Assembly: GCA_964035545.1 (NCBI GenBank)
Contig: OZ037772.1
Location: 3,191,538 to 3,255,537 of the forward strand
Direction: 5' to 3'
Source: Bugula neritina
Taxonomy: Eukaryota; Animalia; Bryozoa
DNA length: 64,000 nucleotides
The notes below the pieces were generated by a model. That model was not told the DNA's origin. It worked only from the letters and a program-made list of their open reading frames with translations, and did no database searches. Positions 8,135 through 57,361 of the stretch are shown piece by piece. The first letter of the stretch is position 1; each line of letters starts with the position of its first letter. The translations under genes and the position numbers were made by a program.

Positions 8135-11100
8135 TGTTATATTTTGGCTCCGCCCATTTATTCAATATTGTATATCCGGTTTTTGTTAGTTGTAACGCTG
8201 CGCATACCAGCGTGGTTTTATTCAATTGGAAATATACCTCAGCAAATATAACAAGCTGGCGACGATTGATGGTCTTTATTTTTATTATTTTGAACTCAAT
8301 ATTTTTCTCTAACTATGCCCGTGGGCAACATAAGTGAATTCAAGCACGACACAGAAGATTGGTCTACTTATAAGACCAGATTTACGTCATGGCTAATAGT
8401 GAATGATATTAATGAAAATGAAAAGCGAAAAGCAGCTTTTATTGCTATGCTTGGGAGTGAAGCTTTGAGCCTATTAGTGAGCTTATCAGCCCCTACATCA
8501 ATCAACGAAATGGATTATACTGGCTTGCTGGAGCTGTTTGACAATCATTTTGGAGCTAAGAATGAGGTAGCAGAGGCGTATGTATTTGATACCAGAACGC
8601 AATCACCTACTGAGTCAGTGTCTGACTTTATTCTGGCTCTCAAAGCACTGTCTACACACTGCAATTTCGGACCCACTGAACAGTTAAAACAAAAGCTACG
8701 GAACAGGCTTGTGGCTGGTGTCAGGTCTGACACAATCAGACAAGCATTGATAAGAGAAGGCACAACTCTGACATGGGATAATGCTGTGACTTTAGCGAAG
8801 CAAATGGACGATTACCAGTCAAGTGCTATGGCTAAACAAGCACTGCCATCAGAACCTGTGAATGCAGTCTATTCGGAAAAACAACCCACCAACAGAGGTC
8901 CTCATGCTTCAAGGTCCCAGGCCTCCACCAGTCACACAGCCCCACGCCTGGGACCGCCATTACCCGCAGCTAAGTATTCTAACAGTAATTATAACACAAA
9001 ACGTTGGAGATGTGGTAGAGGTCATCATCCAGCTAGATGCAGGTTTAAAGATGCTAATTGCCACTCTTGTGGGAAAAGAGGACACATTAAACCCATGTGT
9101 AATGGGGAAAGAGTTCAAACAAATATTGCTCAACAATATCATCCTGTACATTCATATGAAAGTGATTTATCATCAGACATGGTTAATATTGGAATAGCTA
9201 GCACTCTTTTGTCAGAAAAATCTAATTTATCTAATCCATATTCTGTTACTTTGCAAATTAATGATGCTAATGTCAATATGGAAATCGACACTGGTGCTTC
9301 AGTCTCATTAATTCCCTATTCTCTGTATCAGAAACATTTTAGCAATGTAAAACTTTCACCTTCTAATGTAAAATTTTGTAGCTTCACTGGAGATGTGGTG
9401 AATTGCGAAGGTAAAATGGAAGTGAATGTCAAACATTTTGGCCAGACTAAACGGATGTGGCTTCATGTGCTTGGTGCATCAAAGTTTGCCCTGTTGGGGA
9501 GAGACTGGCTGGGAGAGTTGCAAATTAATTGGCAAGCCATAAAGAGTGTGGTAAGTTCATCGGTAAATGGCATTGAACGATTGCTGGCTGCGTACCCTGA
9601 TATTTTTAAAGGTCAAGGCTTGCTAAAAGGTTCACCAGTTAAGCTTGAGTTGGTTGATGGCGCTACCCCCAAATGCTCTAAACCTTACAGAGTGCCTATT
9701 GCACTTCAGTCTGTAGTAGATAAGGAGCTTGATAGGCTAATTAATGAAGGAATTTTGACACCTGTTGAACACAGTAGCTGGTCCACTAGCTTACTCTTTA
9801 TCCCCAAACCTGACGGCTCGGTCAGACCTTGCGGTGATTTTAAGTCGACAGTCAACCCTCTTCTTAAGGAAGTAGCACCACCTCAAATAAACATGGAAAA
9901 TATTCTGTGTGATTTAGCAGGAAACAAATATTTCTCAAACTTAGATTTTGCCCAAGCATATAATCAGATGGTCATACATGAGTCATCCAAAGAGTTGCTA
10001 ACACTGGTCACCCATAGAGGCTTGTATCAGTATAACAGACTGCCGTATGGTATCAAGACTGCTCCGTCCTTGTGGCAAAATGCCATAGAACATGTGCTTA
10101 ATGGTATAGAGGGTGTTCATATATATTATGATGACATATTGGTTGCAGGGCGAACTGTAGAGGAACATAACCATAGGCTAGAGTTGGTTTTCAAACGTAT
10201 AAAGGAACATGGTTTGAAATTAAAGCACTCAAAATGTTCTTTTCTGAAGCCAGAAGTGAAATATCTTGGTCACATAATTAATGGTGAGGGCATTAGGCCA
10301 ATTCCTGCCAAGTTAGATAGCATCCTTGAAACTGAGGCACCTAAGGATAAATCGAAAGTGCGATCTTATGTGGGTCTATTGAATTTTTACAGGCGTTACT
10401 TGCCCAACCTTGCTGCGACTGTTGCCCCTTTGAATGCTTTGCTTAAGGCCAATGCTAAATTTGTTTGGGATAAGACGGCCCAGAATGCTTTTGAAAAATC
10501 TAAAAACTTATTGAGAGAAAGTAAGCTGCTAGTTCACTTTAACCCAAACTTGCCTGTGAAACTAACGTGTGATGCCTCAAGAGTAGGCATAGCAGCAGTT
10601 CTTTCACACGTTATTGATGATGTAGAACGCCCCATACAATTTGCATCTCGAAAATTAACATCTGCGCAGATTTTGTATCCACAAATAGAGCGAGAAGGTT
10701 TGGCTGTTGTTTTTGGGTAAGAAAAATTCAGGCATTTCTTATATGGGCGGAAGTTTACTCTAGTGACGGACAATCAGGCTCTAAGTAGAATATTTGCCCC
10801 AGAGAAGGGGCTTCCGGTTATGACAGCAGAGCGTATTCAAAGGTGGGCTTTAAAGCTTTCAGGATATGATTACACCATTGAGTGGCGCAGAAGCAAAGAT
10901 AATAGGGCAGATTTTCTTTCCCGGTATCCTGATTCAGTAGCTGCTAGTGAATTGAATGAAAAACCCCATGCATTTATTTTTAAAGTTGACAATCTTGGAC
11001 TTCCTATCACTTCCTTACAGGTGGCTAAGCTCACTGCTAAAGACCCAACACTATGTAGGGTATTCAGGCTAGTGAGAGAGGGCTGGCCTCAAAAATTGTG

Positions 11101-12608
11101 TGAGGCCGACTGGGATCTGAACCCTTTCTTTGCTAGAAGAAATGAGCTATCTATCATGTCAGGAGTAGTTATGTGGGGAAATCGAGTAGTTATCCCACGT
11201 TCTCTTCAAAACCCTCTGTTAAAGGAATTGCATGATGAGCATTTAGGTATATGTAAAATGAAATCTGTAGCAAGGTCATTTATGTGGTGGCCAGGCTTGG
11301 ACAAAGATATTGAAGCAACTAGCAGGTCTTGCGATTCATGCATGTCTATGAGTAATGACCCTAAAGCAGTTAATACACACCCATGGCTACCCACAACTCG
11401 ACCATATCAGCGCATTCACATTGACTATGCTGGTCCTGTAGAAGGTCATATGTTACTAGTAGTGGTGGATTCGTATTCTAAGTGGCCTGAAGTGTGTGTT
11501 ACAAAATCTACCACCTCCCAAAATACTTTAAACATGCTTAGGCCAATCTTTGCTAGATGGGGTGTGCCTATGGAGCTGGTCAGTGACAATGGACCACAAT
11601 TTTGTAGCGAAAAGTTTGAAGCCTTTTTGGCACATTTGAGCATCAAACATAAGAAAAGTGCACCCTATCATCCAGCCACTAATGGTTTAGCAGAGCGGTT
11701 TGTACAAACAGTCAAAAGTGCTCTAAGGGCCTCTCAAGGTTTAGATTTACAGTATCGGTTAGACAGGTTTTTGTTGGCTTATCGTAATGCTCCTCACTCA
11801 ACTACTGGTGAGAGCCCTGCAACTTTAATGCTTGGTCGAACATTGAGAACAAGGCTTGATTGCTTAAAGCCTGACATAACATCAAAACTACATGATGCAG
11901 GTCCTATAGCTATACACCGTGAATTTGACATAGGCTCAGATGTTTGGGTGAGGTGTTACTTTGGAGCTGTTAAATGGAAAAAGGGGGTAATAATTGACCA
12001 GGTTGGCCCGTTGTGTTATTTCGTACAGGTAGGAGAAAAGAAATGGAAACGCCATGTAGACCAACTCAAGCACCGAGAAGCGAAAATAGCTAATGACCAA
12101 AATGAAACCACTCCTTTAGATATCAGTGTTCAGCCATTTACCGGTGTGCCATGTGATTTAATTTCTAGGAACACACCTTCTTCATTAAGCCACTTGCCAC
12201 CAGTCTCTGCACCTCAAACAGGTCCAACCTCTGAGCACATGGAGCCTCGTCCTGATAGTCTTCAAACTCCTGCAACTGTGAGTACACCTTCAGCACCTGT
12301 CACCACACCTTCAGAGCCAAGGCGTTCAAGTAGGATACGTAAGCCAAGAGTGCTGTTAGACTTATAATACTTTCAATTTTATTATTTTACAGTTACATTG
12401 TTCTTTCATTTCTTTCTGTCTTACTTTGAATTTATTACTTGTTTTGTTTCTTGAATGTTTTGTAAGTCAAGCTTTGTAAAGGGAGAATCTGTTATATTTT
12501 GGCTCCGCCCATTTATTCAATATTGTATATCCGGTTTTTGTTAGTTGTAACGCTGCGCATACCAGCGTGGTTTTATTCAATTGGAAATATACCTCAGTAA
12601 ATATAACA
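8135..12608 (+). mobile_element. Full-length Ty3/Gypsy (Mag-like) LTR retrotransposon
   Basis: 119-bp LTRs at 8135-8253 and 12490-12608 (TG..CA, one mismatch), 5-bp TSD ATTTG on both sides, PBS TGGCGACGA (tRNA-Ser type) after the 5' LTR, PPT aaagggagaa before the 3' LTR. Confidence 0.96.
8315..12367 (+). pseudogene. Single-frame gag-pol polyprotein with one premature TAA (10718-10720)
   Basis: Gag with two CCHC knuckles (first Cys mutated), protease EIDTGAS, RT YYDD, RNase H CDAS, integrase HHCC and IHIDYAGP...SDNG...AERFVQ. ORFs 8315 and 10763 share a frame: FG*EKFRHFLYGRKF. Confidence 0.93.
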
Positions 12609-13478
12609 ATTTGATCTTGTCTTCAGCTTCTGCCCAGATATGGCAATTTCAACTTGCTAAACCAAAATTGAAAAGTTCATTTCTATCATTATTGCATATG
12701 AAATGAGCATTTCGCAGTTGAACTCATCAGAAATGACATAATTAATATGAAAAAGAATGAAATACAGTTTAAATTAGATCAAATTTGTTTGCAGTTTTAC
12801 TGCATTGTCATGGCCGATGAGCATAATATCAGCATGTATACAGCTAATAGCATGATTGTTTTACTACTACTATTATAAGTTTTTACTTTCATCATAATTG
12901 ACTATTACACTTACTATAGCAATAGGCATGGTCAATGATCATAAATTGAGTGTTAGCATGGCTATCAGTAGTAAGTACAGCATAATAGATTATTATTATA
13001 AATGTATTTATACAAATAGTAACAGTAATACTAAAAGTAATATTTTTAGCTATAATTGGTATCCACAAGTTTGCACTACAATTTTAAATTACATACAACT
13101 TCAACTTAAAAGTAAGAGTGAAACGCTTAATAGTTATTACTCTAACTATGACTATTAGGATTAGTATAATATTGTGGTGGCTCGTGGAGCTACCAGCAAC
13201 ACAATACGCAAGGTTGCGTATTGACCCGGAACAATGTATTAGCCAATTAGCTAGGTTGTTTTATGAGTAATAGTAGCAGCTTCGCGCTACTAGCTCAGTT
13301 GAGGATAGTGCTGTAAATTAAATAGACGTGCGTATCATTACTGTTGTACATTAGATTTTATTATGTATTCTTGTATTAAAATATAACGATATCTACTCGA
13401 CTTAACTCGGTGAAGTTTCTCTAGTGATAAATAGACTCTCTTGGTGGCACATCAACCCTAAATCTGAAAATCAATACA

Positions 13479-14416
13479 GTGGTGGCAGCAGTGGGATATT
13501 TGTGTACAATGCTGTGGGATATGAAAAACCGATGCTGTTTCCAAGGATAGGAGATTACAGGCAGGACTGTTACAATGACATTAGATATCGAATGCACCAG
13601 CGATCTTTTAACAGGTATTTCTCTAACGCGTTTAGTGCCCAAGACCGGGAGGGTCTGGCGTCTTACCAGTGCGAATGCAATGCACAAGTAAACAATTCAC
13701 ACCGCTCATTCAGCAGACCTTTGGTGAAGGAAGTACAGGTGGCGTGGAGGAGCACTGTCTATACACATTCCCTGGCTACGCTACGCTGTAGGGAAGCACT
13801 TCAGTAAGAGTTGTACGAGCAGGTGTCGAGCTTACGCTGGAAGTGGCGGCAAACGTCTCAAGAACCTCGGCCTACTACTGAACGGCAGACGGCGTCGTGA
13901 TGGAGAGTACCCATCCTCTTTGTGGCGCTAAGGAGCAGCTGGAAAGACAGGCGCATATAGCCAGAGCAGGGCAACGACTTGCCAACTTTCGCTCTAATGA
14001 TGGACACGCCCTTCATGTCAACCCCCTCCTTGATAGGTGTTCAAGCTCAGAGGAGCCCGAGGAAAATCTCACGGCCTCAGCCTCTGCATGTAGTAATGTC
14101 CAAGGCAGAGAATATCCCCGACCCCGGTAAACCCGACCAGCCATATCAGCAGCGACACCTTCGTAACCTAACACAGAAGTCTGATCCTAAGGTATTAGCC
14201 AGCTTATTGTACTTGTAGACTGTGCTCCTGTAGTTTCCCTTATTTGTAAGTAGTGTATACCGAATGTCTGTTATATTGTTGCAGTTTCTGTGTGAATATT
14301 TTTTTTTTTGGTGGCGTTCTTATATTGTATTCTAATTGTGTTTTCTTTTTTTTGTCTGTTTGTTTTCTTGTACTCCTTTCTTATCGGAAAGGTGTACTTT
14401 CCGATGGTGGGGGGAG
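13479..14416 (+). mobile_element. Internal region of a putative non-autonomous LTR element B (no gag/pol)
   Basis: Starts with PBS TGGTGGCAGCAGTGGGAT. Contains only short interrupted ORFs (~13532-13807 and 13897-14130), then a T-rich tract, the hairpin atcggaaag/ctttccgat and the PPT ggtggggggag. Confidence 0.75.
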
Positions 14417-14524
14417 TGTAGTGAGTTTTGGTTATCTATATTATTATTCACCTGTCGTAGTATAATCACACATTGTCAATGTGTGATGTAATAACCCGCT
14501 ATGGTTAGTAGTTAGCGGTTAGTA

Positions 14525-14660
14525 GTCACGTAGGTAGTTACTAATGTCACGTAGGTAGTTTACTAATGTCACGTAGGTAGTTTACTAATGTCACGTAGGT
14601 AGTTTACTAATGTCACGTAGGTAGTTTACTAATGTCACGTAGGTAGTTTACTAATGTCAC
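14525..14660. repeat. 21/22-bp tandem array within LTR-B (6 units)
   Basis: gtcacgtaggtagt(t)tactaat x6. The solo LTR has 4 units. Confidence 0.95.
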
Positions 14661-15094
14661 ACCATCGGCAATGGAACACCGCCGGCAGCTATAACCATGG
14701 ACTGCAGTGTAATAGATGTAACGTAATGCGTACGCATGGTCATCATAACAGGCTGCCAGTACTAGTAGTTAATGCCTAGCTTGACGGCATCACCATTACT
14801 AGAGAGACCGTATGCTGTTCCGCACCAGCAACGCTATGGCCATTCACTTAGCTGGACTCACTCATCAATACATCAGTTGACTACATGTTAACATTCCTTC
14901 GTGCCGTACGGCACATGTGAAATGCGGGGACTCCCCGCGGTCCACCGGAACCCATGGACCAATCACCATCCAGCCAGCTGTGGCTGCGATGAATCATGCT
15001 TACAGTCGTCTGAGCAAGTGTGGGTATTTTCCATCATCAACAAAGTGACAGCTATGCATCAGCTTGCCCGGATGAACCTTGAAGTAATGGCCAG

Positions 15095-15146
15095 GATGAC
15101 GTGATATTAATACCAACCAATCAGAGGCGAGCTCTCGTATATATAC
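15095..15146 (+). promoter_or_regulatory. Putative LTR-B core promoter (CRE-like TGACGT, CCAAT, TATA)
   Basis: gatgacgtg ... aaccaatcag ... gtatatatac occur in canonical order, and the same motifs are at ~54956-55007. AATAAA lies near the LTR end. Confidence 0.5.
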
Positions 15147-15389
15147 AGCACCTTCAGCCGCCCACAGGCAGATTGGAACTGGCAGGCTAACTCATGTAGT
15201 TACTACGACTTATGTATATTCTTTCTCGGCTGATGTATGTTATTTTTACTCGTATGTTGTTTACTTAAATATAATTCTCGCATTCCTAATCCACTTGGTT
15301 CGGTTCCTTCTGTAACCTCACAGCATGATGCAGTAATTAGTAGTACACAATAAAAACCCACAAACTAGTAATTCCACGAATTACTACAG

Positions 15390-15407
15390 TGGTGGCAGCG
15401 GTGGGAT
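15390..15407 (+). promoter_or_regulatory. Primer-binding site complementary to tRNA-Leu 3' end
   Basis: TGGTGGCAGCGGTGGGAT. The same site or a one-mismatch variant follows LTRs at 13480, 28556, 39902 and 60086. Confidence 0.85.
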
Positions 15408-15421
15408 AGTGTACATCAAAG

Positions 15422-18400
15422 ATGGAGACTGAAAATGCTAGAATGCAACCACCCCCAGTAGAAGGTGAGCGTAGAAATGCTGTTAATCCTGTGAATCGTG
15501 AGGGAGAAGAAGCTTATAGACATTGCTTGAAAGCTCCCACTTTTACTGGGTCGGAAGATGTCGAACAATTTATACAAGAATTTAGAGAGGTAATGGAGGT
15601 TGCTCAATGGCCGCATAGAGTGGCCCTTATCCAATTGCGGAGAGCGGTGACGGAGCAAGCCAAGCCGTACGGAGTGGGAACGGACGTAGACGGGATACTG
15701 GCTGCGCTGCGGGCCCGTTTTGGCATCTCCGCAATAGACCCTAGGACCAAGCTAGAGAGATTGTGCCGCACCCCGCGGACCTCGCTACAAGAACATGCCG
15801 CGACGGTGAAGAAGCTGACGCAGATTGCATATAGCGATCTGCCAGCACAACACCAAGAGCGTTACACCTATGACGCCTTTGTCCAGTCACTAAACGACCT
15901 GGGCCTACACCATCAACTACGAGCTGAAGGGATAACCAGAATAGAAGATGCCCTGAAGGCTGGAGAAGCTTACCTGTTGGCTACCCAAATGCATCAAGCA
16001 CGACGGAACCCACCAGTAGTTGGAGTCAGCGCTGCCAGGGCTACGACAGGTCCCGAAGCCCTCCCGCTGGAAGCCGAAGTGGACCGTATGGTAGAGATGC
16101 TGGGACAACTGGTAACCATTCTGGCCGGTGCTGGCCCCGGTCAGGCCCTGCGGGTGCCCCCAACACCTGTGGGGCAGGGCTGGAGTAGCGCTGATCAGAA
16201 CCAGGGACAGAAAGGACGACCCCAATACCAGGGGGCGTTAAACTGTCACGGCCTGCGGACACTCTCCCTCCCCGCGGACACTCTCCCTCCCCGCGGGCCG
16301 CAACTGAAGGAGTATGGCGGGACACGCCGTCTTCTGTCCGTACGGACACGACGGAACACTCCACCCGAGTGGCAGGTACCACGCAGGACTAGTAGGCCCG
16401 CACAACGGCCGAGTACCTTCTCCCTGCCACTCGCCAACCGGTTCCACCGGTTACCTCGGGAAGAGGAGCCCGCCACTGAAAGGGAGCCAGAAGGCCCAGT
16501 GGAGAGCCCCAAACCCCGCCGGCATCAACCTCGCCGCCGGAAGCCCCGTAAACCACGGGTGAAACCTCCGCCGTCCTGTCAATCCAAGACAGCACATGCG
16601 GGGGGGGGGGGGGTGAAAGTACAAATACATGGAGAGAGCTATTTCCTACCCGGAAAGGTGGCCGGCAACGCTGTCATTTTCCTGCTCGACTCCGGTTGTA
16701 CTACTAACCTTCTCAGCCGTAGAGTCTTTGAGGCACTGCCCCGCCGGGACAGGGATAGAGTACGACCGTATACAGGGGAACATGGCACCCTAGCAGACGG
16801 GTCATGTATTCCTTTCTACGGTATTATCGAGCTCCCTGGGCGTGTCCGAGACCAGGCTGTACAGGAGACCTTTGTCATAGGCCAACTGGAGGAAGATGCT
16901 ATCCTCGGAATGCCCTTCTTGAAGCAACACCAATGCCGAATAGACTTCAGTAAGTCGGTGGTGCTGATGGGCGGGCGAGAACTCGCCTGTGTGGATAAGT
17001 TTGGGCGTACTCTGGTGGGTGGTGTTCAGGTAGTTTGAAACTGCACCGTGCCCGGACGCTCCAGAGCTACTATCCACTGCCGAGTGAACAGCAACCGGAT
17101 AGCCAAGCTCGGGGTAGTTGAAGGCGCGCACGAAAGGATCCAAGTCGCCAGTAGTTTAAACCGACTAACTGAGCGAGGGGAGGTCTTAGTGCAGTGAGTC
17201 AACCCTTTTACCGAGCCCATTGAGCTCCCAGCTGGGTCAATGCTGGGCCGGTTCCACTCCGTCCAGGAAAAGGACGTGGGCCCGTCGCTGGGTGACGCGA
17301 CGGAGGCACCCCCTCGACACCCTATTCAGGGACGAGGGGCAGTCCCAACACATCTCCGGGAGTTATACGAAACAGCCAATGGCGGCTGCGCGAGTAACAG
17401 AGAACGCCAAGCTATGGCTAAGTTACTACGCGACTACGGTGATGTGTTCAGCAGCGTAGAGCATGACGTGGGACTGACTGGAATTGTCAGACACGAAACA
17501 CCGCTGACTGCAGGGACAGTCCCTGTCCGGCAGCCCACACGCAGGCTGGGGCCGGAGAAAAAGAAGGAGGTTAGCCGACAAGTACGGGATCTTCTGGACC
17601 GGGGACTGATAGAGCCCGCCCATAGTGCGTGGAGCTCGCCAGTCGTACTGGTCCGGAAGAAAGACGGCAGTTGGCAGTTCTGTGTGGACTACCGCAAACT
17701 CAATAGCGTAACCATACAGGACGCCTACCCTCTACCTCGTATTGACGAGTCATTGGACGCCCTAGCCAGCAGCAAGTACTTCAGTACGTTAGACTTGCTA
17801 AGCGGCTATTGGCAGGTTCCTCTGAGTCCCGACGCCCAAGAGAAAGCGGCGTTTATCACACGGGACGGTTTGTGGAAGTGGAAGGTGCTGCCCTTTGGGT
17901 TAACCTCCGCCCCAGCCACCTTCCAGAGGCTGATGGAACAAGTCCTTAGCGGACTCCATTGGAAGACACTGCTGGTCTACCTCGATGATGTCATCGTAAT
18001 CTCTCCAGACTTCGAGACACATGTCAGTCGTCTGCAGGAGGTTTTCGAGAGACTCCGAGGTGCCGGTCTCAAGCTCAAACCTTCCAAGTGCGCTCTATTG
18101 CAGCCGGAGGTCAAGTACCTGGGGCACGTTGTCGGTCGAAACGGCGTGGCAACGGATCCCGAAAAGGTACGGGCGGTAGAAGACTGAGTCACCCCCCAAG
18201 ACTTGACCGGACTCCGGGCTTTCTTGGGGCTGGTAGGGTATTACAGGCAATACATACCAGACTTTGCGGGCATAGCCCAGCCGTTAAACCGGCTCACCGC
18301 AAAGGGAGTGACGTGGCAGTGGACCCCAGTCGAACAGGAAGCGTTCGACCGCCTCAAGGGCTGCCTACTAACGGCGCCCATCTTGGCCTACCCAGACCCC

Positions 18401-20890
18401 ACTCTGGAGTACATCCTCGACACGGACGCCAGTGACCAAAATGTTGGCGCTGTGCTGGCACAAGTGCAGGTAGGCCGAGAGGTAGTAGTAGCCTACTACA
18501 GCAAGTCTCTCTCACCCGCTGAACGAAATTACTGCACTACCCGCAAGGAGCTGCTGGCAGTAATCAAGTCAGTGAAGCACTTCAGACCATACCTATATGG
18601 CAGGAAGTTCCGGCTGCGTACGGATCATGCCTCGCTGATCTGGTTGTGCAAGAGAGCAGAGCCCTCTAGTCAGGTCGCCCGGTGGCTCGAAATCTTAGCT
18701 GAATTCCCATACCGGATCGAACATCGACCGGGCAAGAGACACAGCAATGCGGATGGGTTGAGTCGCCGACCTGACGGAGGTTGTAAACAGTGTCTCAACA
18801 TCGAGAGGAGGGATGGAGGTCCCCCGCGATGCGAGTTGGAGACGCTGGCTCATCACGGAGCACCGTTTGACTGGGACCAAGGTCAACTCAGGCAAAGAGT
18901 TGATGAGTCCCCGGAGGATGTACAAAACCTCCGCGCCAACCCTGTACTGGCCGGTAATGTTCGAGAGCTGAAGAAGCTTCAAGAAGAGCTGCCTGGAGTC
19001 GTGGCAGACATATACCGGGCCAAAAGAGAAGGGCGACGACCCAGCGAGGAACGCATACGACAGGGACGCGCCGAGTTCCGGCTATACTGTCAGCGTTGGG
19101 ACTCGCTGCGGATCGGGCAGGATGGGTTACTCACCATTTCCCTAGCTGCCAGCGGCAGACACCCGGAAAGGAAGAGGGTAGTCTGCCCCACGGCCATCCG
19201 CCGTGAGTTGATTTGGGATACTCACAAACAGGCCCACGCAGGGGTCAAGAGAGTGATATCCAAATTACGACTCCGGTGGTATTGGCCACAAATGGAGCGT
19301 GACGTCCGGCTCAGAGTCAAACAGTGTGAGATCTGCCAGGCCAGTAAGCATAGCCGCCCCCCTGGTGAAGCAGGACGGCGGAGGCTATATGCTGGTAGGC
19401 CCTGGCAAGTAGTCGCTGTAGACCTGGTCGGACCCATGCCCCTGACCCCCAGAGGCAATAATTGGATCCTAGTACTAACCGACCACTTTACTAGGTGGGC
19501 GGATGCTCTGGCTATCCCAGATGCATCAGCCCCAACAGTGGCCAGGGCACTAGACCAACATGTATTCTGTTATTTTGGACTTCCCGAACAGATACACTCT
19601 GATCAAGGCGCTCAATTCCAGTCTCAACTGATGAGCGACCTTTGCCACCTCTGGGGAGTAAATCAGAGCAGGACCACCCCCTACCACCCTCAAGGTAACG
19701 GGGTGGTGGAGCGCAACAACCGGATGCTAGGTGATGCACTCCGGAGTCCCCTCCTTGGACGAGGTCAAGAGGAATGGGATACGGTGTTGCCGCAGGTCAT
19801 GCGTGCATACCGTAGCACCCCACACACCAGTACTGGTGAGACCCCAAACCTCTTGATGCTCGGGAGAGAGACTCGTGTCCCTGACCATCTCACCTATCAC
19901 GTTCCAGAGCAAGACAACTCGGTTCACGAGTATGCCAGTGAACTAGTGGAACGGATGAAGGCCGCACACGATATACTGCGCCAACAGCAGTGGAAGGTGC
20001 GGCACGAAGATTCCGATGAACCACCTCTCTATCAAACGGGAGATAAGGTGTGGATGGTCAATTACCGTAGGCGTCGCGGACAGGCTGATAAACTGAAGCC
20101 TAAGTTCGTAGGGCCCTACGTGGTCGTCGAGGCTATGCCCAATCATACGTACAAGATCGAGCGCTCAGGACAGGTGTCTATCCAGAATGAGTCTCGCTTG
20201 AAACCGTATTGGGCTAGCCCCGACGGAGTGGGAGAAGCCCCCCGTTGTTAGAGCCCAGGAGGCAGACAACGACGCGCGGGCGACGGCGGCATGGACCTGA
20301 ATACGAAGTGGTCATACCGCGGGAAGAAAACTTGGTGAGAGAGGAGCGGCAGCTTTTGTCAACAGAAGCATGTCCGCCACCGCCAAGTCTAATTCCATCA
20401 CTTCCAGAAACCGAGCCGGTTCCGGAAGTGCAAACCCCCACGGAGGGAGGGGCTCCATCCGGAGAACAAGAAGAAGTGACCGCTAACGGTGAAGTAGAGA
20501 CGCCATTAGAGGCCCCTACTAACGAACCGGTAAGCGTGTCACCCCCCCCCTAGAAAGGGGACAGCGTACGAGGAAACCCCCACCATATTTAAAAGACTTC
20601 GTATGTGACTGCATTAGAAGCGGCGCACATGAAAGTCTAGGGGAAAACCGTACGATAAAATGTTGGAGTTGTGAGCCCCACGCAAAAATCAACTTTTGCG
20701 AGGGCGGAATAGTGGGAGGAATTAATGCGCGTAAAGCAAATAGTTCCGACCTCGTGCCTCAGAAACGATGCTCAGCCTTTTCTTATGCTGACATCGCCAA
20801 AGGCAGACGTATCTCACAACCAGCTCCAATCTTACCAAGAACGTTGAGTATGGACATTAATACCGAGTTCCCAGGTAAGCCAGTATAAGT
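15422..20890 (+). pseudogene. gag-pro-pol of family A copy 1 (defective)
   Basis: Gag, protease LLDSGCT, RT YLDD, RNase H DTDAS, integrase HHCC/DDE. In-frame stops at 17036, ~17196 and 18185, and frameshifts in the integrase tail. Confidence 0.93.
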
Positions 20891-21979
20891 CTTGTATTCC
20901 TATTCATGGAAACGGGCTCGATGCCAGTAAATTCTGAACTAATTCAGCAGATTGAATCAGAATTACTGGGAACCACGTTTCATGTGAATGACGATGAAGA
21001 CACTGTAATGGCCGACGGTCTGTTAGACCTGGAGCTAGACACTGTTCTTGGTCAGTCCACACATGATTCATCGGTTCCTCGAGTGCATTCCAAAAGCTGT
21101 GACTCTCAGGCTAGCAACGGTCAACAGTCACTAGAATTATGTTGTAAAGATCCACCGCGATCTAACAATAATTCTACTTTTGTAGACACACTCGCGCCCG
21201 TCTCTCCGGGCATGCCTTCTCTAGAGATGGCGTGGGACCCAGAGCCGGCCCCAACAACTTCTACAACCAGGCAACTGCCACCCCAGTTGGAAGCAACCTC
21301 CAACTGGATTACCCCTGCCACAGAGAGAGAGATTAGGACCCATCAAGGAGGTGAGAGTAATCGTGAATGCAACCTCTGCCAGCAGCGATTCACAACCCAC
21401 CGCAGACTGAAAATACACTTGCCGCAACACTACATCATCACTTTCCGCCCTTGCGGAGAATATAGCTACAATCGTGATTACCTACTGCGGCACCAACGTA
21501 CTATGCAGTGTTATCAAGGGCACGTCTATGAAGTAGACGAATCATCCTATCCTGCCTTTCTCAACGCCATCAAACCACTCATCACTGACTCAGCTCGGCT
21601 ATCTCGCCTGGAGCAAGGCTTCCCTTCCCCGCGACCCATCATCTCCGGAGCCGCAGATAAACCTACACAGTCTACTAACTCTCCACCTCACAGTCCTCTA
21701 CGCATACCGCATACCTTTCCTCGTGTCGTACTACAGAGGGTAGACACAAATGCGTATACACTCCCTCCTCCCCTTCCATCCTCAGAGCGGAAAAGACATA
21801 GACAGCCGACTTCCTCTCGCTCGTCCCCCTGGGCCCGCAACCTACGTGAAGTAGAAGCTAGGGCACACGACTTGGAGCAAGAAGTGTACAGACTGGCCCC
21901 ACGGGTGCAGGCTGCATCCAGTGAACTCAAATATTTACAGGAGTCTATCAAACGCATGAAGCGTGCGGCCCGCAGTTAA
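20850..21979 (+). CDS. Accessory ORF3: zinc finger plus coiled-coil protein; predicted exons 20850-20874 and 21186-21979 (272 aa); unspliced ORF 20906-21979 (357 aa)
   Basis: C-x2-C-x12-H-x3-H motif and a C-terminal heptad segment. Donor CAG|GTAAGC, branch-like CTAAC at 21162-21166, acceptor TTTTGTAG|. Homologues at 34085 and 45007. Confidence 0.8.
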
Positions 21980-23759
21980 CTTGAGTCTATCTCCAACTCC
22001 ATACTACTCTTCCCCTACCTCTCTGTGGCATTCCCTACCGTTATGGTGGCACGTACTCTACATGTAGATAGGACCTTCTCTTACTTATTACGTATTGTGC
22101 ACGTTATATATACCCGTATATTTTATCAGTTGTTGTTTTTTTTTGTATATACTTTTATACTGTTCTCTTACCCCCCCCCCAACGAAGTATACATTTTTTT
22201 TATGTGAAATTTATTTTTATCAGAAAGAGGGCTTTCTGCTGGAGGGGGCAGTGTGGTGGCTCGTGGAGCTACCAGCAACACAATACGCAAGGTTGCGTAT
22301 TGACCCGGAACAATGTATTAGCCAATTAGCTAGGTTGTTTTATGAGTAATAGTAGCAGCTTCGCGCTACTAGCTCAGTTGAAGATAGTGCTGTAAATTAA
22401 ATAGACGTGCGTATCATTACTGTTGTACATTAGATTTTATTATGTATTCTTGTATTAAAATATAACGATATCTACTCGACTTAACTCGGTGAAGTTTCTC
22501 TAGTGATAAATAGACTCTCTTGGTGGCACATCAACCCTAAATCTGAAAATCATAACAATATGGTAAAATGCAAAACTGAGTACCAGTATAAAACTGATAT
22601 TTAACCTATTTGTAGATTCTAAACTTTTAAATTAGAAAATATATTAGAAAATATAGTAATAGTAGTAGCAGCAACCTTGCGGTAACTCCTACAGTTAATC
22701 CTAGTTCTATCATCTATCAGTATTACTATGATTATCATTATGATTATGATTATTACCATCAGTATCAGTATCACCATCACCATGACTTCAAATCTAAAAC
22801 TATGAGTATCAGTATGACTGACTGTGAGAGTATCACCACCACTATGAGTGGTGGTGATAGTGAGTATCACTATCACTACAATACTTAATTAGTTACTTAT
22901 AGGTATACTCATACTGTGAGTTATACTACTATCACTATTAGTATCACTACGACTATAACTATCACTATCACTATCAGTATAATTATGACTATCAGTATCA
23001 GTATCCGTCTTCTTGGGTTAGGCAAATTTTCAACTTACGCGCTGGGATGAAAATTCAACTAATTTTATTTTCAAAGCTCACGTTTAAGGAACTACAGTGC
23101 AAGCAAAAATTATCGAATATCGATGCTTAAAAACAAAAAGAAAATTTATCCATTTCAATTCAACTAATGCCTTGGGCTTGTAGCTTACTCAATGTTGCCT
23201 AACAATTCACAACATCCGCTGCGTCTTTCTTGTTAGCTAGGGAACCAAAAATCCGAACGGCCTACATAACGTTTTTCAGACTAGGGGGCTTGTTTTTTGT
23301 GTTATGTATTATAATCTTTTCCACCGATCTTGCAATTTGTTTTTATGACCATGGGCAAGGCCAAGGTTTCTCCCGCGGATCTGCAGCAAAAATGAAGAGG
23401 ATTGTTGTGAAACAGAAGTTGCATTTGTGTAGTTTATCATTAATATTATTATTAATGATATTAATTATCGATAATATTAATTATTATTATTAATCTCTTG
23501 AATTTTATACTCATAATGATATGATTATATCTATTTATTATTATATCTATATAATTACCATAATATTAATTATAATGATAATCATAATATTAATCATGAT
23601 AATGATAGTTACCTCCAGTTACCTCCAGATTACGATCATGCTAGACCACTAGGTAGCAGAAGCGGCATGCCTCATATGTTTACGGTTGGTCAGAAAGTAA
23701 AATGCATACAATAGACCATAAATTGGTTGCAGTGTGTGTTGCAATATTGTTTATTAGTA

Positions 23760-26183: not shown

Positions 26184-27194
26184 AGCTGTGAAGGAACTGT
26201 TAGCTGTGGCACGAAACCACTTGAGGAAATTCTCCTGGCAGATGCACACTCAAGGCAGATAGAAAATCGTCTCGAATCAAACAAGTCGTTGTAAAACGAC
26301 TTGAATTTATCAAACAAGTGTGGTAACCAAACCTTGCACCTACTCAATGAAGTGTCCAATAGATCCATGTGGGCCTTCAAAGTGAGTTGGCTAATTTATT
26401 TGATATTTATTTTTATTCATTTGATATCTAGTGAAGCTATTTGCAGTATGATTTGGTCGCCATGTTGCAACTTAGAGTAACTATAATAACTTTGAGATTG
26501 TAAGCTAAAATTTACACAATATGTTCATTAAAACTGTTCTCTGCTTGTCACCAATTTCAATATTAACTTTCTCTATAACCCTGGATTATATTAGCTCAGT
26601 ATAAATTTTTAGGCTCAGTTCCTTAGAATATAGTGTTTTATGGTTAATTCAACTTAGCATGTTATGCACCATCTGCTAATTTTTAGATACGTGAGACATT
26701 TTTAGAGGTGTGAGCTATGATCAAACAGTCAATCTTTTTTTTACTTTGCTCTCTGCTATTCTTTCACCATATTCTACACTATTTTACCTTATTCTTGCAC
26801 ACCATTTTTTACATTCTTATTTTTTACCTACTCTTACACCACATTCTACCTTATTTCACCTTATTCTTGCACCATATTCTACATTATTCTACCTTATTCT
26901 TGCATCATATTCTACATTATTTCACCTTATTCTTCCACTATATTTTATATTATTTTACCTCATTCTTACACCATATTCTACATTATTTTTACACCATATT
27001 CTATTGAAGTGTTGGATGCTTGGGAAAATGCACCGACCGGATTTTTCACTGGAATACTCAACTGGGCTGGTGACTACCAGGAGTGTGTTGCCATCAGATC
27101 TACCTACGGAGAGAATGATGACCCGGGTATGTTGCTCTATCAGGGGATGTACTGCTCCAAGATACACCCTAGCATGGCGGCCAATGACGGACAG
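26184..27194 (+). pseudogene. NRF-6/O-acyltransferase-like N-terminal (NRF domain) exons, ~26184-26381 and 27010-27194
   Basis: LSNKCGNQTLHLLNEVSNRSMWAFK and LDAWENAPTGFFTGILNWAGDYQECV...YQGMYC match the NRF-domain pattern (WAxxMxDAWG.P.G...W.G.Y.EC...G.YC). In-frame TAA at 26292 and a phase mismatch between the exons. Confidence 0.75.
26757..27004. repeat. ~33-bp degenerate tandem repeat in intron
   Basis: attcttgcaccatattctacattattttacctt-like units. Confidence 0.85.
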
Positions 27195-28585
27195 GTACTA
27201 AGTCTATTTCAAGGTCACATCAGGTTTCTAAATCCAATTGCAGCTGCAAATTCCTTTTCAACTTTCAGTGTTTACAGGATAATGTGAGTTTTGGCAGCTT
27301 TCGCTGTCACTATTTTGACCTTGATAAAAATTAGGTGGAGGAAAAATGAATAGCTCCAATATATGAGATGTCTTGTAGCTTCAATATATGAGATTTTTGT
27401 GTGTCATAAATATGAAAGGTTAAATCTTACATCAGTAGACTGGATAGTTGATGCTGTCAGATTTTGAAACATAAATAAATAAGCCATGACTGTATAAAGC
27501 TTATACTATACTAAAATTTATGTTAGATTTCTTCCAGGCTACGTTACATCCAGAGCCTTTGCAGACACGCTGCCTACAGCTCAGACACTTGCAGACACTT
27601 GGCAATAGCTGCCAGTGAATTAATTTACTAGTGAAATAATATTGATAGTGTCATCCATGTGTCATGTTAGATTATTGGTATAATGAGGTTACATCAGTGA
27701 TGATTAAAATTACTAGTCAGCCTAGTTCACAATAATGCCTTTGCTGTCTATTTCTCTACATTCTTTACATTGCACAACATTGCTTGGCTATTTCTTTAAA
27801 CCTCTACATCATAGCCTACGGCATTCATAGTCTGTTGCATTAGTTATGAAGTCATAGAATATAAAAGAACCACATTTATGTGAGTCTCACACAACCTCTG
27901 ATTGGTTCTTGTGAATCTTACACAACCACTGATTGGTCTCGCTACCTGTCTAATTACAAATATTGACAGAAGAAGACTTTAACTAACTGAAACTCTATCT
28001 CTATATTGATACTCTGCTTTAGTAAAAAGTGAGTAACTGGGGTGGAGAGAGCCAGTTCTCAAGAAGCTGATTATAGAGAGGGCTGAGGGAGCTGATTTTG
28101 TGCCAGTCTTGGAGACAGAGCAGGTTTTGGCCGGGACGGCTTTGAGAGTAACGATCAATGTGACAGCGGAGTTATAAAGTCATCAACTTGAAGTGAGTGT
28201 AGATGCTTACCCACATCTGCTGATTGTAAACGAGTGTAGAGTTTTATTGTGGTGGTTCATGGAACTACCAGCAGCACAACATGTAGGGTCGCGTAATTGA
28301 CCCGGAACAATGGATAGCCAATTAGCGTAGTTGATAGTTAGCAGCAATTGTAGTTTCCCGCTGCTAACTCAGTCGAAGCTAGAGTGTGAAATAGATTAGA
28401 TGTATAACTTGTTTGGAAATAATGTATCGTGTTTTTATAATGTATAGTTGTGTATAAAATATACTCGTTCTCTCGACTTATCCTGGTGCAGTTCTATAGT
28501 AGATAAATAGACTCTCTGGATAGCACATCAACCCTAAATCTGAAAATTATAACAGTGGTGGCAGCGGTGGGATAGTGCATCCAAG

Positions 28586-29539
28586 ATGGAGACTGAAAAT
28601 GCTGGAACTCAACCACCGACAATCGAAGGTGAGCGTAGAGACAATGCTGTAGAGACAATGCCTGTTAACCATGTAGTAGAAGAGCGAAGGGTTCCGCGAG
28701 AACTAGCTGAGGACCGCTACAGGTTAAAGGCGCCCACCTTCACGGGTGAAGAGGAGGTGGAACAATTTATCCAAGAGTTTAGCGACGTAATGGACGTCGC
28801 TCAGTGGCCCCCTAGGGTGGCCTTGCTGAAGCTTAGAATGGCATTGATGGACAAAGCCAAGCCCTATGGGCTGGGCGTAGACATTGATAATATCTTTGCT
28901 TCTCTGCGGGCCCGCTTTGGCCTCTCTCCTACAGATGCCAGGGCCCGATTGCAGAGGTTGCGGCGTGATCCCCGCACCCCGCTGCGGGAGCATGCCGCCG
29001 CGGTCATGAAGCTGGCACAGATCGCGTACAGCGACTTGCCCCCAGTCAACCGCGAGAGGTACACCCTCGACGCTTTCATAGCATCTGTCGACGATCTGGG
29101 TCTCCACCACCAGTTTCTAGCTAGGGGAGTCACCACCGTTGAAGATGCTCTGACTGAGGGGGAAGCTTACCTCCTAGCTAATCAAATGCATAAAAGTCGC
29201 GGAAGCTCCCGCCAAGTGGAGATAGACCGCGCAGACACGGCCGCGGGACAAGGGGAGGAAACCCCCGCCGCGGCTGCCGTGTCCCAGTTGGCGACGGCAT
29301 CAAAAGTCACTCAACTGACGGACATGCTAGCCAAGCTGATAGCAACACTGACACCACAAAACCCAGTGAGTACCGCCCCTGGGCCCATGCGGCCATCGGC
29401 GCCGCCACAGGGAGAAACAGTCAGTTTTTGCTGGGAGTGCGGAAATCAAGGACATTTCCGCCGATATTGTCCCTTCCTAAATCAGGGGTTAAACTACTGC
29501 GGCCCGCAGATGTTCCCACCTTCCGCGGGCCGACGATGA
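28586..29539 (+). CDS. Gag (317 aa) with CCHC knuckle
   Basis: The ATG follows the PBS. Contains CWECGNQGHFRRYC and is homologous to family A gag. Confidence 0.88.
   Translation: METENAGTQPPTIEGERRDNAVETMPVNHVVEERRVPRELAEDRYRLKAPTFTGEEEVEQFIQEFSDVMDVAQWPPRVALLKLRMALMDKAKPYGLGVDIDNIFASLRARFGLSPTDARARLQRLRRDPRTPLREHAAAVMKLAQIAYSDLPPVNRERYTLDAFIASVDDLGLHHQFLARGVTTVEDALTEGEAYLLANQMHKSRGSSRQVEIDRADTAAGQGEETPAAAAVSQLATASKVTQLTDMLAKLIATLTPQNPVSTAPGPMRPSAPPQGETVSFCWECGNQGHFRRYCPFLNQGLNYCGPQMFPPSAGRR
29488..29532 (+). promoter_or_regulatory. Putative -1 ribosomal frameshift signal (G TTA AAC plus stem-loop)
   Basis: GTTAAAC at 29488-29494, then cggcccgc (29500-29507) pairing with gcgggccg (29525-29532). 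The pro frame is -1 relative to gag. The same motif occurs at 16237 and 60722. Confidence 0.7.
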
Positions 29540-32500
29540 AACCTCTAGGGAAGAAGAAACGCAGGTCACCCAGACGGGTACCGCGTACTGGCAACCAACA
29601 GTGGCAACAGCCACGACGGACCAGCAAGGGGCTTCGCCCCGCGGCTGCCTTTTCTATGCCCCTTCACAACAGACTCACAGGGCTACAAGTCCAAGAGTCT
29701 GGATGGGAGCACACAAAGGTAGCTGAGAATCTAGCCTCGGCACCCCCGAGACCTACCTATCACCGCCCCAAGAGACCTCCTTCGCGACCCAAAGCGAGGG
29801 AGGTACTCCCTGCGAGAGTAAGGCCCGAAGGGAGAGTTCAGGTGCAGCCCCATGGGAACAGCTATTTCTTGCCCGGTGAACTGGAAGGCAAAGCTGTTAC
29901 TTTTCTCATTGATTCGGGCTGTACCACAAACCTCTTAAGCCGCCAAATCTTCGACACCCTCAGCGCTAGGGTCAGGGGCGAGATGGAAGCATACGAAGGG
30001 GAATACGGCACCCTAGCTGACGGGTCGTGCCTTCCCTTCTATGGTATAATTGATCTGACGGGACGAGTCCGCGATCAAACGATCCAAGAGACGTTCATCG
30101 TCAGTCAGCTCAAGGAGGATGCTATCCTCGGGATGCCGTTCCTTAAACGGCACAGATGTCACATAGATTTTAGCAGATCTGCAATGATGATGTCCGGGCG
30201 GGAACTCGCCTGCGTCGACAAGTTCGGCCGCCCTTTAGTGGGAGGTGTGCAAGTGGTACGCAACCGTACCATACCAGGCCGCTCCCGGGCTACCATTCAC
30301 TGCAGGGTGAATAGTAGCCGGATCTCTGGACTCGGGGTGGTTGAAGGCGCGCACGAAAAGATCCGACTTGCCAGCAGTCTGAATCAGCTGACTGAGCAAG
30401 GGGAGATCTTAGTGCAGTGCGTCAACCCCTTTACCGAGCCTATCAAGCTCCCGGCGGGGTCAATGCTGGGCCGTTTTCACTCTGTTCAGGAGGGAGACGT
30501 AGGCCCGTCGCTGGGTGATGCGACAGAGGCACTCCCTCGACACCCTATTCAGGGATGAGGGGCAGTCCCAACACATCTCCGGGAGTTATATGAGACAGCC
30601 AGTGGCGGCTGCGCGAGTAACCGGGAACGCCAAGCTATGGCTAAGTTACTACGCGACTACGGTGATGTGTTCAGCAGCGGGGAGCATGACGTGGGACTGA
30701 CTGGAATTGTCAGACACGAAATACCGCTGACTGCAGGGACAGTCCCTGTCCGGCAGCCCTAGCGCAGGCTGGGGCCGGAGAAAGAGAAGGAGGTTAGCCG
30801 ACAAGTACGGGATCTTCTGGACCGGGGACTGATAGAGCCCGCCCATAGTGCGTGGAGCTCGCCAGTCGTACTGGTCCGGAAGAAAGACGGCAGTTGGCGG
30901 TTCTGTGTGGACTACCGCAAACTCAATAGCGTAACCATACAGGACGCCTACCCTCTACCTCGTATTGACGAGTCATTGGACGCCCTAGCCGGCAGCAAGT
31001 ACTTCAGTACGTTAGACTTGCTAAGCGGCTATTGGCAGGTTCCTCTGAGTCCCGACGCCCAAGAGAAAGCGGCGTTTATCACACGGGACGGTTTGTGGAA
31101 GTGGAAGGTGCTGCCCTTCGGGGGAACCTCCGCCCCATCCACCTTCCAGAGGCTGATGGAACAAGTCCTTAGCGGACTATATTGGAAGACACTGCTGGTC
31201 TACCTCGATGATGTCATCGTAATCTCTCCAGACTTCGAGACACATGTCAGTCGTCCGCAGGAGGTTTTCGAGAGACTCCGAGGTGCCGGTCTTAAGCTCA
31301 AACCTTCCAAGTGCGCTCTATTGCAGCCGGAGGTCAAGTACCTGGGGCACGTTGTCGGTCGAAACGGCGTGGCAACGGATCCCGAAAAGGTACGGGCAGT
31401 AGAAGACTGGGTCACCCCCCAAGACTTGACCAGACTCCGGGCTTTCTTGGGGCTGGTAGGGTATTACAGGCAATACATACCAGACTTTGCGGGCATAGCC
31501 CAGCAGTTAACCCGGCTCACCGCAAAGGGAGTGACGTGGCAGTGGACTCCAGTCGAACAAGAAGCGTTTGACCGCCTCAAGGGCTGCCTACTAACGGCGC
31601 CCATCTTGGCCTACCCAGACCCCACTCTGGAGTACAACCTTGACACGGACGCCAGTGACCAGAATGTTGGCGCTGTGCTGTCACAAGTGCAGGAAGGCTG
31701 AGAGGTAGTAGTAGCCTACTACAGCAAGTCTCTCTCACCCGCTGAACGAAATTACTGCACTACCCGCAAGGAGCTGCTGGCAGTAATCAAGTCAGTGAAG
31801 CACTTCAGACCATACCTATACGGCAGGAAGTTCCGGCTGCGTACGGATCATGCCTCGCTGATCTGGTTGTGCAGGAGAGCAGAGCCCTCTAGTCAGGTCG
31901 CCCGGTGGCTCGAAATCCTAGCTGAATTCTCGTACCGGATCGAACACCGACCGGGCAAGAGACACAGCAATGCGGATGGGTTGAGTCGCCAACCTGACGG
32001 AGGTTGCAAACAGTGTCTCAACATCGAGAGGAGGGATGGAGGTCCCCCACGATGCGAGTTGGAGACGCTGGCTCATCACGGAGCACCGTTTGATTGGGAT
32101 CAAGGTCAACTCAGGCAAAGAGTTGATGAGTCCCCGGAGGATGTACAAAACCTCCGCGCCAACCCTGTACTGGCCGGTAATGTTCGAGAGCTGAAGAAGC
32201 TCCAAGAAGAGCTGCCTGGAGTCGTGACAGACATATACCGGGCCAAAAGGGAAGGGCGACGACCCAGCGAGGAACGCATACGACAGGGATGCGCCGAGTT
32301 CCGGCTATACTGTCAGCGTTGGGACTCGCTGCGGATCGGGCAGGATGGGTTGCTAACCATCTCTCTAGCTGCCAGCGGCAGACACCCGGAAAGGAAGAGG
32401 GTAGTCTGCCCCACAGCCATCCGCCGTGAGTTGATTTGGGATACTCACAAGCAGGCCCACGCAGGGGTCAACCGAGTGATGTCCAAATTACGACTTCGGT

Positions 32501-34060
32501 GGTATTGGCCACAAATGGAGCGTGATGTCCGGCTCAGAGTCAAACAGTGTGAGATCTGCCAGGCCAGTAAGCATAGCCGCCCCCCTGGTGAAGCAGGACG
32601 GCGGAGGCTATACGCTGGTAGGCCCTGGCAAGTAGTCGCTGTAGACCTGGTCGGACCCATGCCCCTGACCCCCAGAGGCAATAATTGGATCCTAGTACTA
32701 ACCGACCACTTTACTAGGTGGGCAAATGCTCTGGCTATCCCAGATGCATCAGCCCCAACAGTGGCCAGGGCGCTAGACCAACATGTATTCTGTTATTTTG
32801 GGCTCCCCGAACAGATACACTCTGATCAAGGCGCTCAGTTCCAGTCTCAACTGATGAGCGACCTTTGCCGCCTCTGGGGAGTAAATCAGAGCAGGACCAC
32901 CCCCTACCACCCTCAAAGTAACGGGGTGGTGGAGCGCAACAACCGGATGCTAGGTGATGCACTCCAGAGTCTCCTCCTTGGACGAGGTCAAGAGGAATGG
33001 GATACGGTGTTGCCGCAAGTCATGCGTGCATACCGTAGCACCCCACACACCAGTACTGGTGAGACCCCAAACCTCTTGATGCTCGGGAGAGAGACTCGTG
33101 TCCCCGACCATCTCACCTATCACGTTCCAGAGCAAGATAACTCAGTCCACGAGTATGCCAGTGAACTAGTGGAACGGATGAAGGCCGCACACGATATACT
33201 GCGCCAACAGCAGTGGAAGGTGCGGCACGAAGATTCCGATGAACCACCCCTCTATCAGAGGGGAGATAAGGTGTGGATGGTCAATTACCGTAGGCGTTGC
33301 GGACAGGCTGATAAGCTGAAGCCTAAGTTCGTGGGCCCCTACGTGGTTGTCGAGGCTATGCCCAATCATACGTACAAGATTGAGCGCTCAGGACAGGTAT
33401 CTATCCAGAATGAGTCTCGCTTGAAACCGTATTGGGCTAGCCCCGGCGGAGTGGGAGAAGCCCCTCCCGTTGTTAGAGCCCAGGAGGCAGACAACAACGC
33501 GCGGGCGACGGCGGCATGGACCTGAGTACGAAGTGGTCATACCGCGGGAGGAAAACTTGGTGAGAGAGGAGCGGCAGCTTTTGTCAACAGAAGCGTGTCC
33601 GCCACCGCCAAGTCTAATGCCATCACTTCCAGAAACCGAGCCGGTTCCGGAAGTGCAAACCCCCACGGAGGGAGGGGCTCCATCCGGAGAACAAGAAGAG
33701 GTGACTGCTGACGGTGAAGTAGAGACGCCATTAGAGGTCCCTACTAACGAACCGGCAAGCGTGTCACCCCCCCTAGAAAGGGGACAGCGTACGAGGCAAC
33801 CCCCCGCATACTTGAAGGACTTCGTATGTGACTGCGTTAAAAGCGGCGCGCATGAAAGTCTAGGGGAAAACCGTACGAGAAAAGAATCGAGCAAATGTGG
33901 GAGTTGTCAACACCACGGAAATATCAACTTTTGCATCGGCGGAAATAGAAATAAAATTCATCCGCCGGGTGCACAAAGTCTTAATCACGCACCCCAACCA
34001 CGTTGCTCGATCTTTTCATACGCTGATGCAGTCAAGAGTAGACGTGTTTCTAAGCAGTAG
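29488..34060 (+). pseudogene. pro-pol of A2 (defective)
   Basis: LIDSGCT, YLDD, DTDAS and integrase motifs. Stops at 30556, ~30760 and 31699. The integrase tail is in a shifted frame (33470-34060). Confidence 0.92.
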
Positions 34061-34084
34061 TTCAAACCATTTCACACATTCAGT

Positions 34085-57336: not shown

Positions 57337-57361
57337 GTTTCTAAAACATAGTGAAAAACTA

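Follow-up and report, generated by a model that had tools for sequence, protein, structure and literature searches.

A third open reading frame after pol

The 64 kb of Bugula neritina DNA analysed here (the window) contain four copies of one Gypsy group of long terminal repeat (LTR) retrotransposons: A1, A2, A3, and a partial copy from ~59860. In A1, A2, and A3, an additional open reading frame (ORF), here called ORF3, is placed 3' of pol; it is of type A in A1 and A3 (family A) and of type B in A2. LTRs, a primer-binding site (PBS), a purine tract, a target duplication, and the order protease (PR), reverse transcriptase (RT), RNase H (RH), integrase (IN) were all found, as in Ty3/Gypsy elements. 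The LTR pairs of the copies are 98-100% identical (those of A3 are identical), 4-bp target duplications occur at A1 and A2, and the gag-pol frame of A1 is interrupted by copy-specific lesions. The family that carries ORF3 is young and lacks env.

ORF3 is a real gene under purifying selection. Its main exon differs between A1 and A3 by 22 synonymous and 8 nonsynonymous changes (dS 0.114, dN 0.013, Fisher P 1e-8). An initial annotation of this DNA had proposed a gene other than env, belonging to no family it could recognise, and both points hold. The possibility that ORF3 is env was considered and rejected, as there is no signal peptide, transmembrane (TM) segment, or fusion-protein homology. 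The maximum 19-residue hydropathy is 0.58-1.51 in the window proteins, and exceeds 1.6 in 7 of 111 homologues. Against Pfam, the window proteins gave sub-threshold C2H2 matches only, and no named family was found for them in Pfam, PDB, or BFVD.

Database searches retrieved 53 type A and 57 type B relatives, and 209 matches in a 50%-identity library, 150 of which were listed. Types A and B can be aligned from the splice acceptor to the C-terminus (probability 99.7). Among 81 proteins scanned, out of 142 new library matches, a Pfam family was assigned to five, in every case a zinc finger, and three of these are generic multi-finger proteins outside the ORF3 family. The named homologues are only bryozoan, from Watersipora subatra and B. 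neritina. Direct linkage to pol is seen in the three copies of the window; for five database proteins it is suggested. Pattern scans with ORF3 DNA yielded no relative among viral contigs (56 pattern matches) or metagenome contigs (109), nor did a pol scan of the viral contigs yield one; an Atlas feature search with a homologue core returned unnamed clusters and generic C2H2 sets. ORF3 is not described in the literature searched, a scope that leaves Repbase, GyDB, subscription journals, and supplements as places where it might be annotated; the word 'zinc' is absent from the accessible parts of PMC13524379 and PMC8556966. Separately, P0117/P0256, P0257, and P0265 are bryozoan gene models, and a W. 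subatra model has two core domains.

The ORF3 product is predicted to combine a compact core with a C-terminal coiled coil. The core is modelled with a predicted local distance difference test (pLDDT) score of 95 and a predicted template-modelling (pTM) score of 0.86, the C-terminal helix is confident too, and the remainder is disordered. The motifs first noted as common to types A and B (both fingers, W/T, VD, and the heptad) are conserved, and the W and VD are invariant within the core. Ligand positions 1-7 of the two fingers are kept in 79-81 of 81 core segments, and Cys occupies the final position in 52 of them. Finger 1 is a classical C2H2 finger in its spacing and in its fold, both in the model and in structural alignment, with a Pfam E of 0.024 that lies below the cut-off. 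Finger 2 is not classical, given its C-x-C spacing and variable last ligand; its first ligand position is substituted in A1, the copy at 20850. Downstream of the core, 21 of 31 lower-scoring homologues reach a crude heptad score that 10% of shuffles attain. Foldseek found no match at E<=0.001 in PDB or BFVD, and a wide structural search gave no Z>=5.

The A2 copy has a mosaic look. It is 92% identical to family A in pol, versus ~75% in the LTR, ~68% in gag, and ~29% in ORF3 at the protein level. Because of these identities, ORF3 seems to move with the LTR and gag, not with pol.

Table 1. Coordinates of the features discussed. Positions are those of the window, except for distant loci, which have their own numbering.
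Feature	Position	Strand	Remarks
Copy A1	13173-22557	+	Type A ORF3
5' LTR of A1	13173-13478	+	99.7% identity to A1 3' LTR over 301 nt
A1 gag-pol	15422-20888	+	PR, RT, RNase H, IN, SH3-like, long tail
Gag start, ATG + 14 codons + 1 nt	15422-15464	+	Likely first coding exon of ORF3 message
Gag-leader donor GTGAGC	15465-15470	+	Phase 1; second-best donor in A1 and A3, best in A2
Proposed 'exon 1'	20850-20874	+	Last codons of pol frame; ATG-donor distance same in A and A2
Pol-end donor GTAAGC	20875-20880	+	Phase 1 in pol frame; strongest donor in type A
Intron-like segment, 311 nt	20875-21185	+	Open in ORF3 frame from internal ATG 20906; conserved nucleotides
Branch-like CTAAC, pyrimidine tract, AG acceptor	21162-21185	+	
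ORF3 main exon of A1	21186-21979	+	Purifying selection
Core domain, ~120 aa	21272-21640	+	Helix, two fingers, strand, two helices
C2H2 finger 1	21368-21430	+	C-x2-C-x12-H-x3-H
Finger 2	21446-21511	+	C-x-C-x12-H-x5-C
C-terminal heptad helix (predicted coiled coil)	21827-21973	+	Basic cluster upstream
3' LTR of A1	22252-22557	+	Purine tract upstream
Copy A2	28248-35756	+	Type B ORF3; gag donor 28629, pol-end donor 34110, exon 34375-35162 with internal stop
Copy A3	39596-46706	+	Type A ORF3; gag donor 39977, pol-end donor 45032, acceptor 45342, ORF3 to 46136
Post-pol ORF, locus L005	5084-6157		
Post-pol ORF, locus L011	3366-4322		
Post-pol ORF, locus L023	1825-2742		
Post-pol ORF, locus L004	6036-6653		
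Post-pol ORF, locus L010	6557-8623		
Post-pol ORF, locus L002	5190-6128		

Splice signals around ORF3

Two strong phase-1 donors, one in the gag leader and one at the end of pol, precede a single strong acceptor at the start of the main exon. On a crude consensus score, which also underlies the donor ranks given below, the acceptor is first of 547 AG dinucleotides in A3 and tenth of 589 in A2. Homology between types A and B begins at this acceptor. A phase-1 join to the ORF3 frame gives the expected 272 codons in both family A copies; the 270-codon product claimed for A2 fails, as its frame has a stop at codon 172, a position that is free of a stop in P0057, a relative with 96% identity. In front of the junction Asp stands Leu, Ser, Val, or Ile in 56 of 56 type A/C matches and Ser or Leu in 21 of 22 type B rows, these rows being related rather than independent. 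This variation fits conservation of a YAG better than conservation of an amino acid. Only 3 of 41 type B ORFs extend more than 50 codons upstream. A2 has no Met between the acceptor and the fingers, and its ORF3 therefore requires an upstream exon. Taken as sequence signals, these features suggest that the acceptor at 21185 is probably used.

The better-supported first exon is the gag leader, whose donor stands 43 nt from the gag ATG in all three copies (39934-39976 in A3, 28586-28628 in A2). The evidence comes from P0083, the 22nd type B row, which begins with Met and 13 residues ending in Glu, followed by the Asp of the exon; its relatives carry intron-end residues at that place. Met-started 43-nt exons that end at a GT number 2, 3, and 5 per copy, and the gag leader is the best fit to P0083 (scores 13, 9, and 13), versus -16 to -22 for the pol-end 14-mers. 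The first exon of ORF3 thus probably lies in gag, and a gag-to-ORF3 splice is likely, judging from this one database protein together with the splice signals. Because P0083 is a single protein record, we infer this splice and do not regard it as shown. The partial copy at 60084-64000 has a 211-nt gag deletion that begins exactly at the gag-leader donor and whose 3' end is not a canonical AG, a weak hint that this donor is used.

RNA data are absent rather than negative on this point. Run X1 covered 0.11 of the words and gave 21 contigs, with no joint and with the gag donor, pol-end donor, and intron uncovered. Run X2 gave three joints over 44640-45420, none of them the 311-nt skip, and 92 joints over the whole element, among which the 15 listed match neither proposed junction.

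Between the pol-end donor and the acceptor lies a segment with mixed properties. In family A it has no stop in the ORF3 frame (ORF 20879-21979), versus 9-10 stops in the other frames, and only 5 of 5000 dinucleotide shuffles are as open; the 265-nt segment of A2 is closed. Its GC content of 0.42 (A3) and 0.37, versus 0.54-0.57, resembles non-coding DNA. The encoded protein identity is 0.61 and the substitutions look neutral, unlike those of the core and coiled coil. Between A1 and A3, one synonymous change in 65 sites was found, versus 22 in 194 for the main exon (P 0.012). We read the segment as constrained at the nucleotide level and tolerant of read-through. In predicted fold stability it ranks lowest of 23 windows in A3 and fourth lowest of 28 in A2; we dropped fold stability as strong evidence because many pol windows fold as well.

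Possible functions of the ORF3 product

An element with strong splice sites must still supply unspliced RNA for Gag-Pol and for packaging, and in a Rev-type layout a spliced nuclear regulator acts with a conserved segment that is present only in unspliced RNA. The reading that we favour, with a probability of roughly 0.4, is that ORF3 is spliced from the gag leader and encodes a nuclear factor for the accumulation or export of unspliced genomic RNA, similar in kind to Rev or to CERV of the C. elegans element Cer1. In an env-style subgenomic mRNA, gag codons 1-14 would be joined to the acceptor at 21185. The double-zinc-finger/coiled-coil protein made from this mRNA would act inside the nucleus, allowing unspliced genomic RNA to accumulate or be exported. 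The RNA target may be the conserved, AU-richer segment from the pol-end donor to the acceptor, which would be kept only in unspliced or partly spliced RNA. The pol-end donor might serve a second isoform, with a middle exon or a Pol fusion, and in family A the open 'intron' could give a longer form. Candidate phase-1 acceptors for a gag-to-pol-tail splice lie near 44566 and 44710 in A3. The nuclear location, self-association, and RNA target of the protein are what we infer; homodimer prediction scored 0.23 versus a mark of 0.32.

Several observations weigh against this reading. The gag junction is seen in one protein among 57 type B matches, with 4 of 14 residues identical, and there is no type A example. 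No read or contig spans any ORF3 junction in X1 or X2, where coverage is thin. As was noted at the outset, no clear sequence similarity links the introns of A and A2. The synonymous quiet of the segment is matched in pol at 41550-42450, and low synonymous divergence could reflect a recombination patch; likewise, the intron folds reach z of -3 to -4.6, yet many pol windows reach -2 to -4.7. General searches, which did not compare CERV directly, turned up neither a sequence nor a fold relationship with CERV or Rev. Finally, the nearest folds of the modelled core, which are weakly matching tandem C2H2 DNA-binding pairs (Z <=3.4, rmsd, or root-mean-square deviation, 2.5-3.0 A over ~50 residues), favour a DNA target.

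The last point leads to the strongest competitor, which is not fully exclusive of the favoured reading, as is true of the rivals in general. The same spliced gene could encode a DNA-binding transactivator or anti-silencing factor that acts on the LTR, with the acidic N-terminal extension that the open type A 'intron' encodes as an optional activation region. We consider this possible but doubtful. The best structural neighbours of the fingers and the basic cluster upstream of the coiled coil would suit such a role, although all fold matches fall below significance. The extension is rich in Ser, Asp, and Glu, has one predicted helix, and stays open from one shared Met in 27 of 44 relatives, as frequently as a main-exon stretch of the same length (25 of 46). 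Yet its substitutions are no more conservative than neutral, synonymous changes are not in excess among its X2 variants (7 of 16, P 0.21; 40 of 46 differences listed), and type B lacks it.

Alternatively, splicing from the pol-end donor could serve pol itself. This donor ranks first of 399 GT dinucleotides in A3 and third of 435 in A2. The 'exon 1' ATG is in the pol frame: the integrase tail runs through it, stop-free into the donor in type A, and the pol stop lies 4-6 codons inside the intron (four in family A). Use of the donor would delete that stop and bring the core, which is out of frame with integrase in the unspliced window copies, into frame. The finger/coiled-coil region would then be fused to integrase and, once splicing turned it on, might target or tether the enzyme much as a chromodomain does. 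The tail has the look of coding sequence (synonymous variants 11 of 20 versus 6.4 expected, P 0.027), the core shares its frame with an integrase-tail motif in P0153 (blastp E 1e-5), P0209, and, by eye, P0234, and pol ends in a PHD finger in the distant Gypsy locus L010. We nonetheless regard a fusion as improbable. A2 keeps the pol phase at 'exon 1' over 65 ungapped codons, but a stop precedes its ATG by 9 codons. Of 111 upstream regions, one matches the tail pattern. P0165 points to frame changes in the pol-tail stretch, and the in-frame cases may be deletion derivatives. No fused protein of 672-2000 aa was found among 7990 candidates, which is weak evidence.

The initial annotation had instead proposed a separate gene of two exons whose start would be the ATG 25 nt upstream of this donor, a model that would call for an internal promoter or an upstream non-coding exon. 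The signals that it described are present: the ATG and 25 nt, the donors GTAAGC (20875, 45032) and GTGAGT (34110), and introns of 311, 311, and 265 nt ending in branch-like CTAAC/TTAAC and pyrimidine-AG. ATG distance and phase are the same in the diverged A and A2, the donor is the strongest in type A, P0075 starts at the donor-equivalent position, and P0121 and P0165 retain a Met-started homologous peptide. We find the model hard to sustain all the same, at least as much so as the fusion. The 25-nt 'exon' consists of the final codons of pol, the sequence immediately before it shows neither a strong in-phase acceptor nor signs of a promoter, and the sole junction-like protein, P0083, matches gag. 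In P0121, P0165, and P0187, the pol-end peptide continues straight into the intron frame, and in the first two a splice would be unnecessary there.

That type A is a plain 357-codon ORF translated from the internal ATG, its splice-like signals arising by chance, is very improbable: the frame is open in both A copies and in the relatives noted above, and no junction was observed in X1 or X2, but type B (closed upstream, with no Met before the A2 fingers), the YAG-compatible residues, the intron-like GC, and P0083 would all be left unexplained.

Accessory genes in other elements and further features of the window

A sense intron that survives retrotransposition had been seen as a paradox, but the argument is weak. 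According to PMC12992720 and PMC5408684, env and other ORF3s of Gypsy elements are routinely expressed from spliced subgenomic RNA, so the retained intron needs no special explanation. ORF3s are described as typically expressed from spliced messages (PMC5408684), and in the idefix subclade the upstream env exon comes from within gag (PMC12992720). The gene described here thus resembles errantivirus env-F (gypsy, ZAM, and idefix; PMC12992720) as a third ORF after pol, with spliced subgenomic RNA in those elements and a probable counterpart here; unlike env-F, its product has no signal peptide, TM segment, or fusion-protein homology. It likewise resembles the bdelloid non-env ORF3s (GDSL, DEDDy, CC, and TM; PMC5408684) and plant additional ORFs (PMC7264820), insofar as these are family-specific extra ORFs between pol and the 3' LTR, a known kind of gene. 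The protein is a different one, and 'zinc' is absent from the accessible text of PMC5408684.

CERV is the closest counterpart in kind. As described in PMC10309623, it has 517 aa, five exons, H/M/G domains, and a C4-type cluster, with no homology outside nematodes. Like ORF3, it is a non-env accessory protein; its spliced mRNA has gag 5' exons, which are likely here. The same text gives it a zipper, a basic candidate nuclear localisation signal, and a Cys-rich region, which we count as likenesses. In contrast to CERV, the ORF3 protein combines two His-containing fingers with a predicted coiled coil at its C-terminus, and its gene occupies the env slot. Among the tandem C2H2 pairs of ZBTB/Kaiso, SALL, and CTCF, two consecutive finger folds align at an rmsd of ~2.5-3 A over ~50 residues; the ORF3 core differs in the C-x-C of finger 2, its variable last ligand, and its larger compact domain, and these matches are not significant. 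Accessory genes with regulatory roles are a familiar feature of complex retroviruses. In deltaretrovirus tax/rex mRNA, a 3' regulatory exon receives its ATG from a small exon at the 3' end of pol; the analogy extends to the pol-end donor only.

For animal LTR retrotransposons, CERV was the sole experimentally shown regulatory accessory gene found in the literature searched. ORF3 would be a second candidate, unrelated to CERV, with young copies, selection, a folded uncatalogued domain, and exact predicted junctions. It bears on how retrotransposons with strong splice sites retain and export unspliced RNA, and on what fills the env slot in lineages that lack env.

A metagenome pol scan yielded 23 distant Gypsy loci, none of which matches the ORF3 core profile. 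Among seven examined, six have a sense ORF after pol, and five have a C2H2-like motif by eye, with weak Pfam support (E 0.016 in L005). Because 5 of 7 loci show such motifs, the post-pol slot may often hold C2H2-like genes. In L023, the best acceptor (1 of 323) is at the start of the post-pol ORF. The pol of L010 (3467-6007) ends in its PHD finger with an E of 5e-8. It is conceivable, though we think it unlikely, that a complex-retrovirus-like programme operates here, in which one acceptor and two phase-matched donors would yield a nuclear regulator and a Pol-zinc-finger fusion or middle-exon isoform, the regulator would bind a retained-intron element, and zinc-finger ORF3s would be widespread and undescribed in this Gypsy clade.

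Other features of the window were noted in passing. The pol tail at 44815-44860 has a small Cys/His cluster, C-x2-C-x2-H-x5-C, common to A and A2, for which Pfam gave no match. The A1 leader (13480-15400) contains a ~1.9-kb insert between two PBS copies, part of which is repeated at 54339-55250, and the partial family A copy has an insertion near 60965-61570. Further features occupy 8294-12367, 39036-39647 with 46616-49228, 56104-59167, 36147-37100, and 26721-27287; they comprise another Gypsy with a PNMA-like gag, long interspersed nuclear element (LINE) pieces flanking A3, a Gypsy fragment on the reverse strand, a tandem array of 21-nt units, and an exon with an NRF domain.

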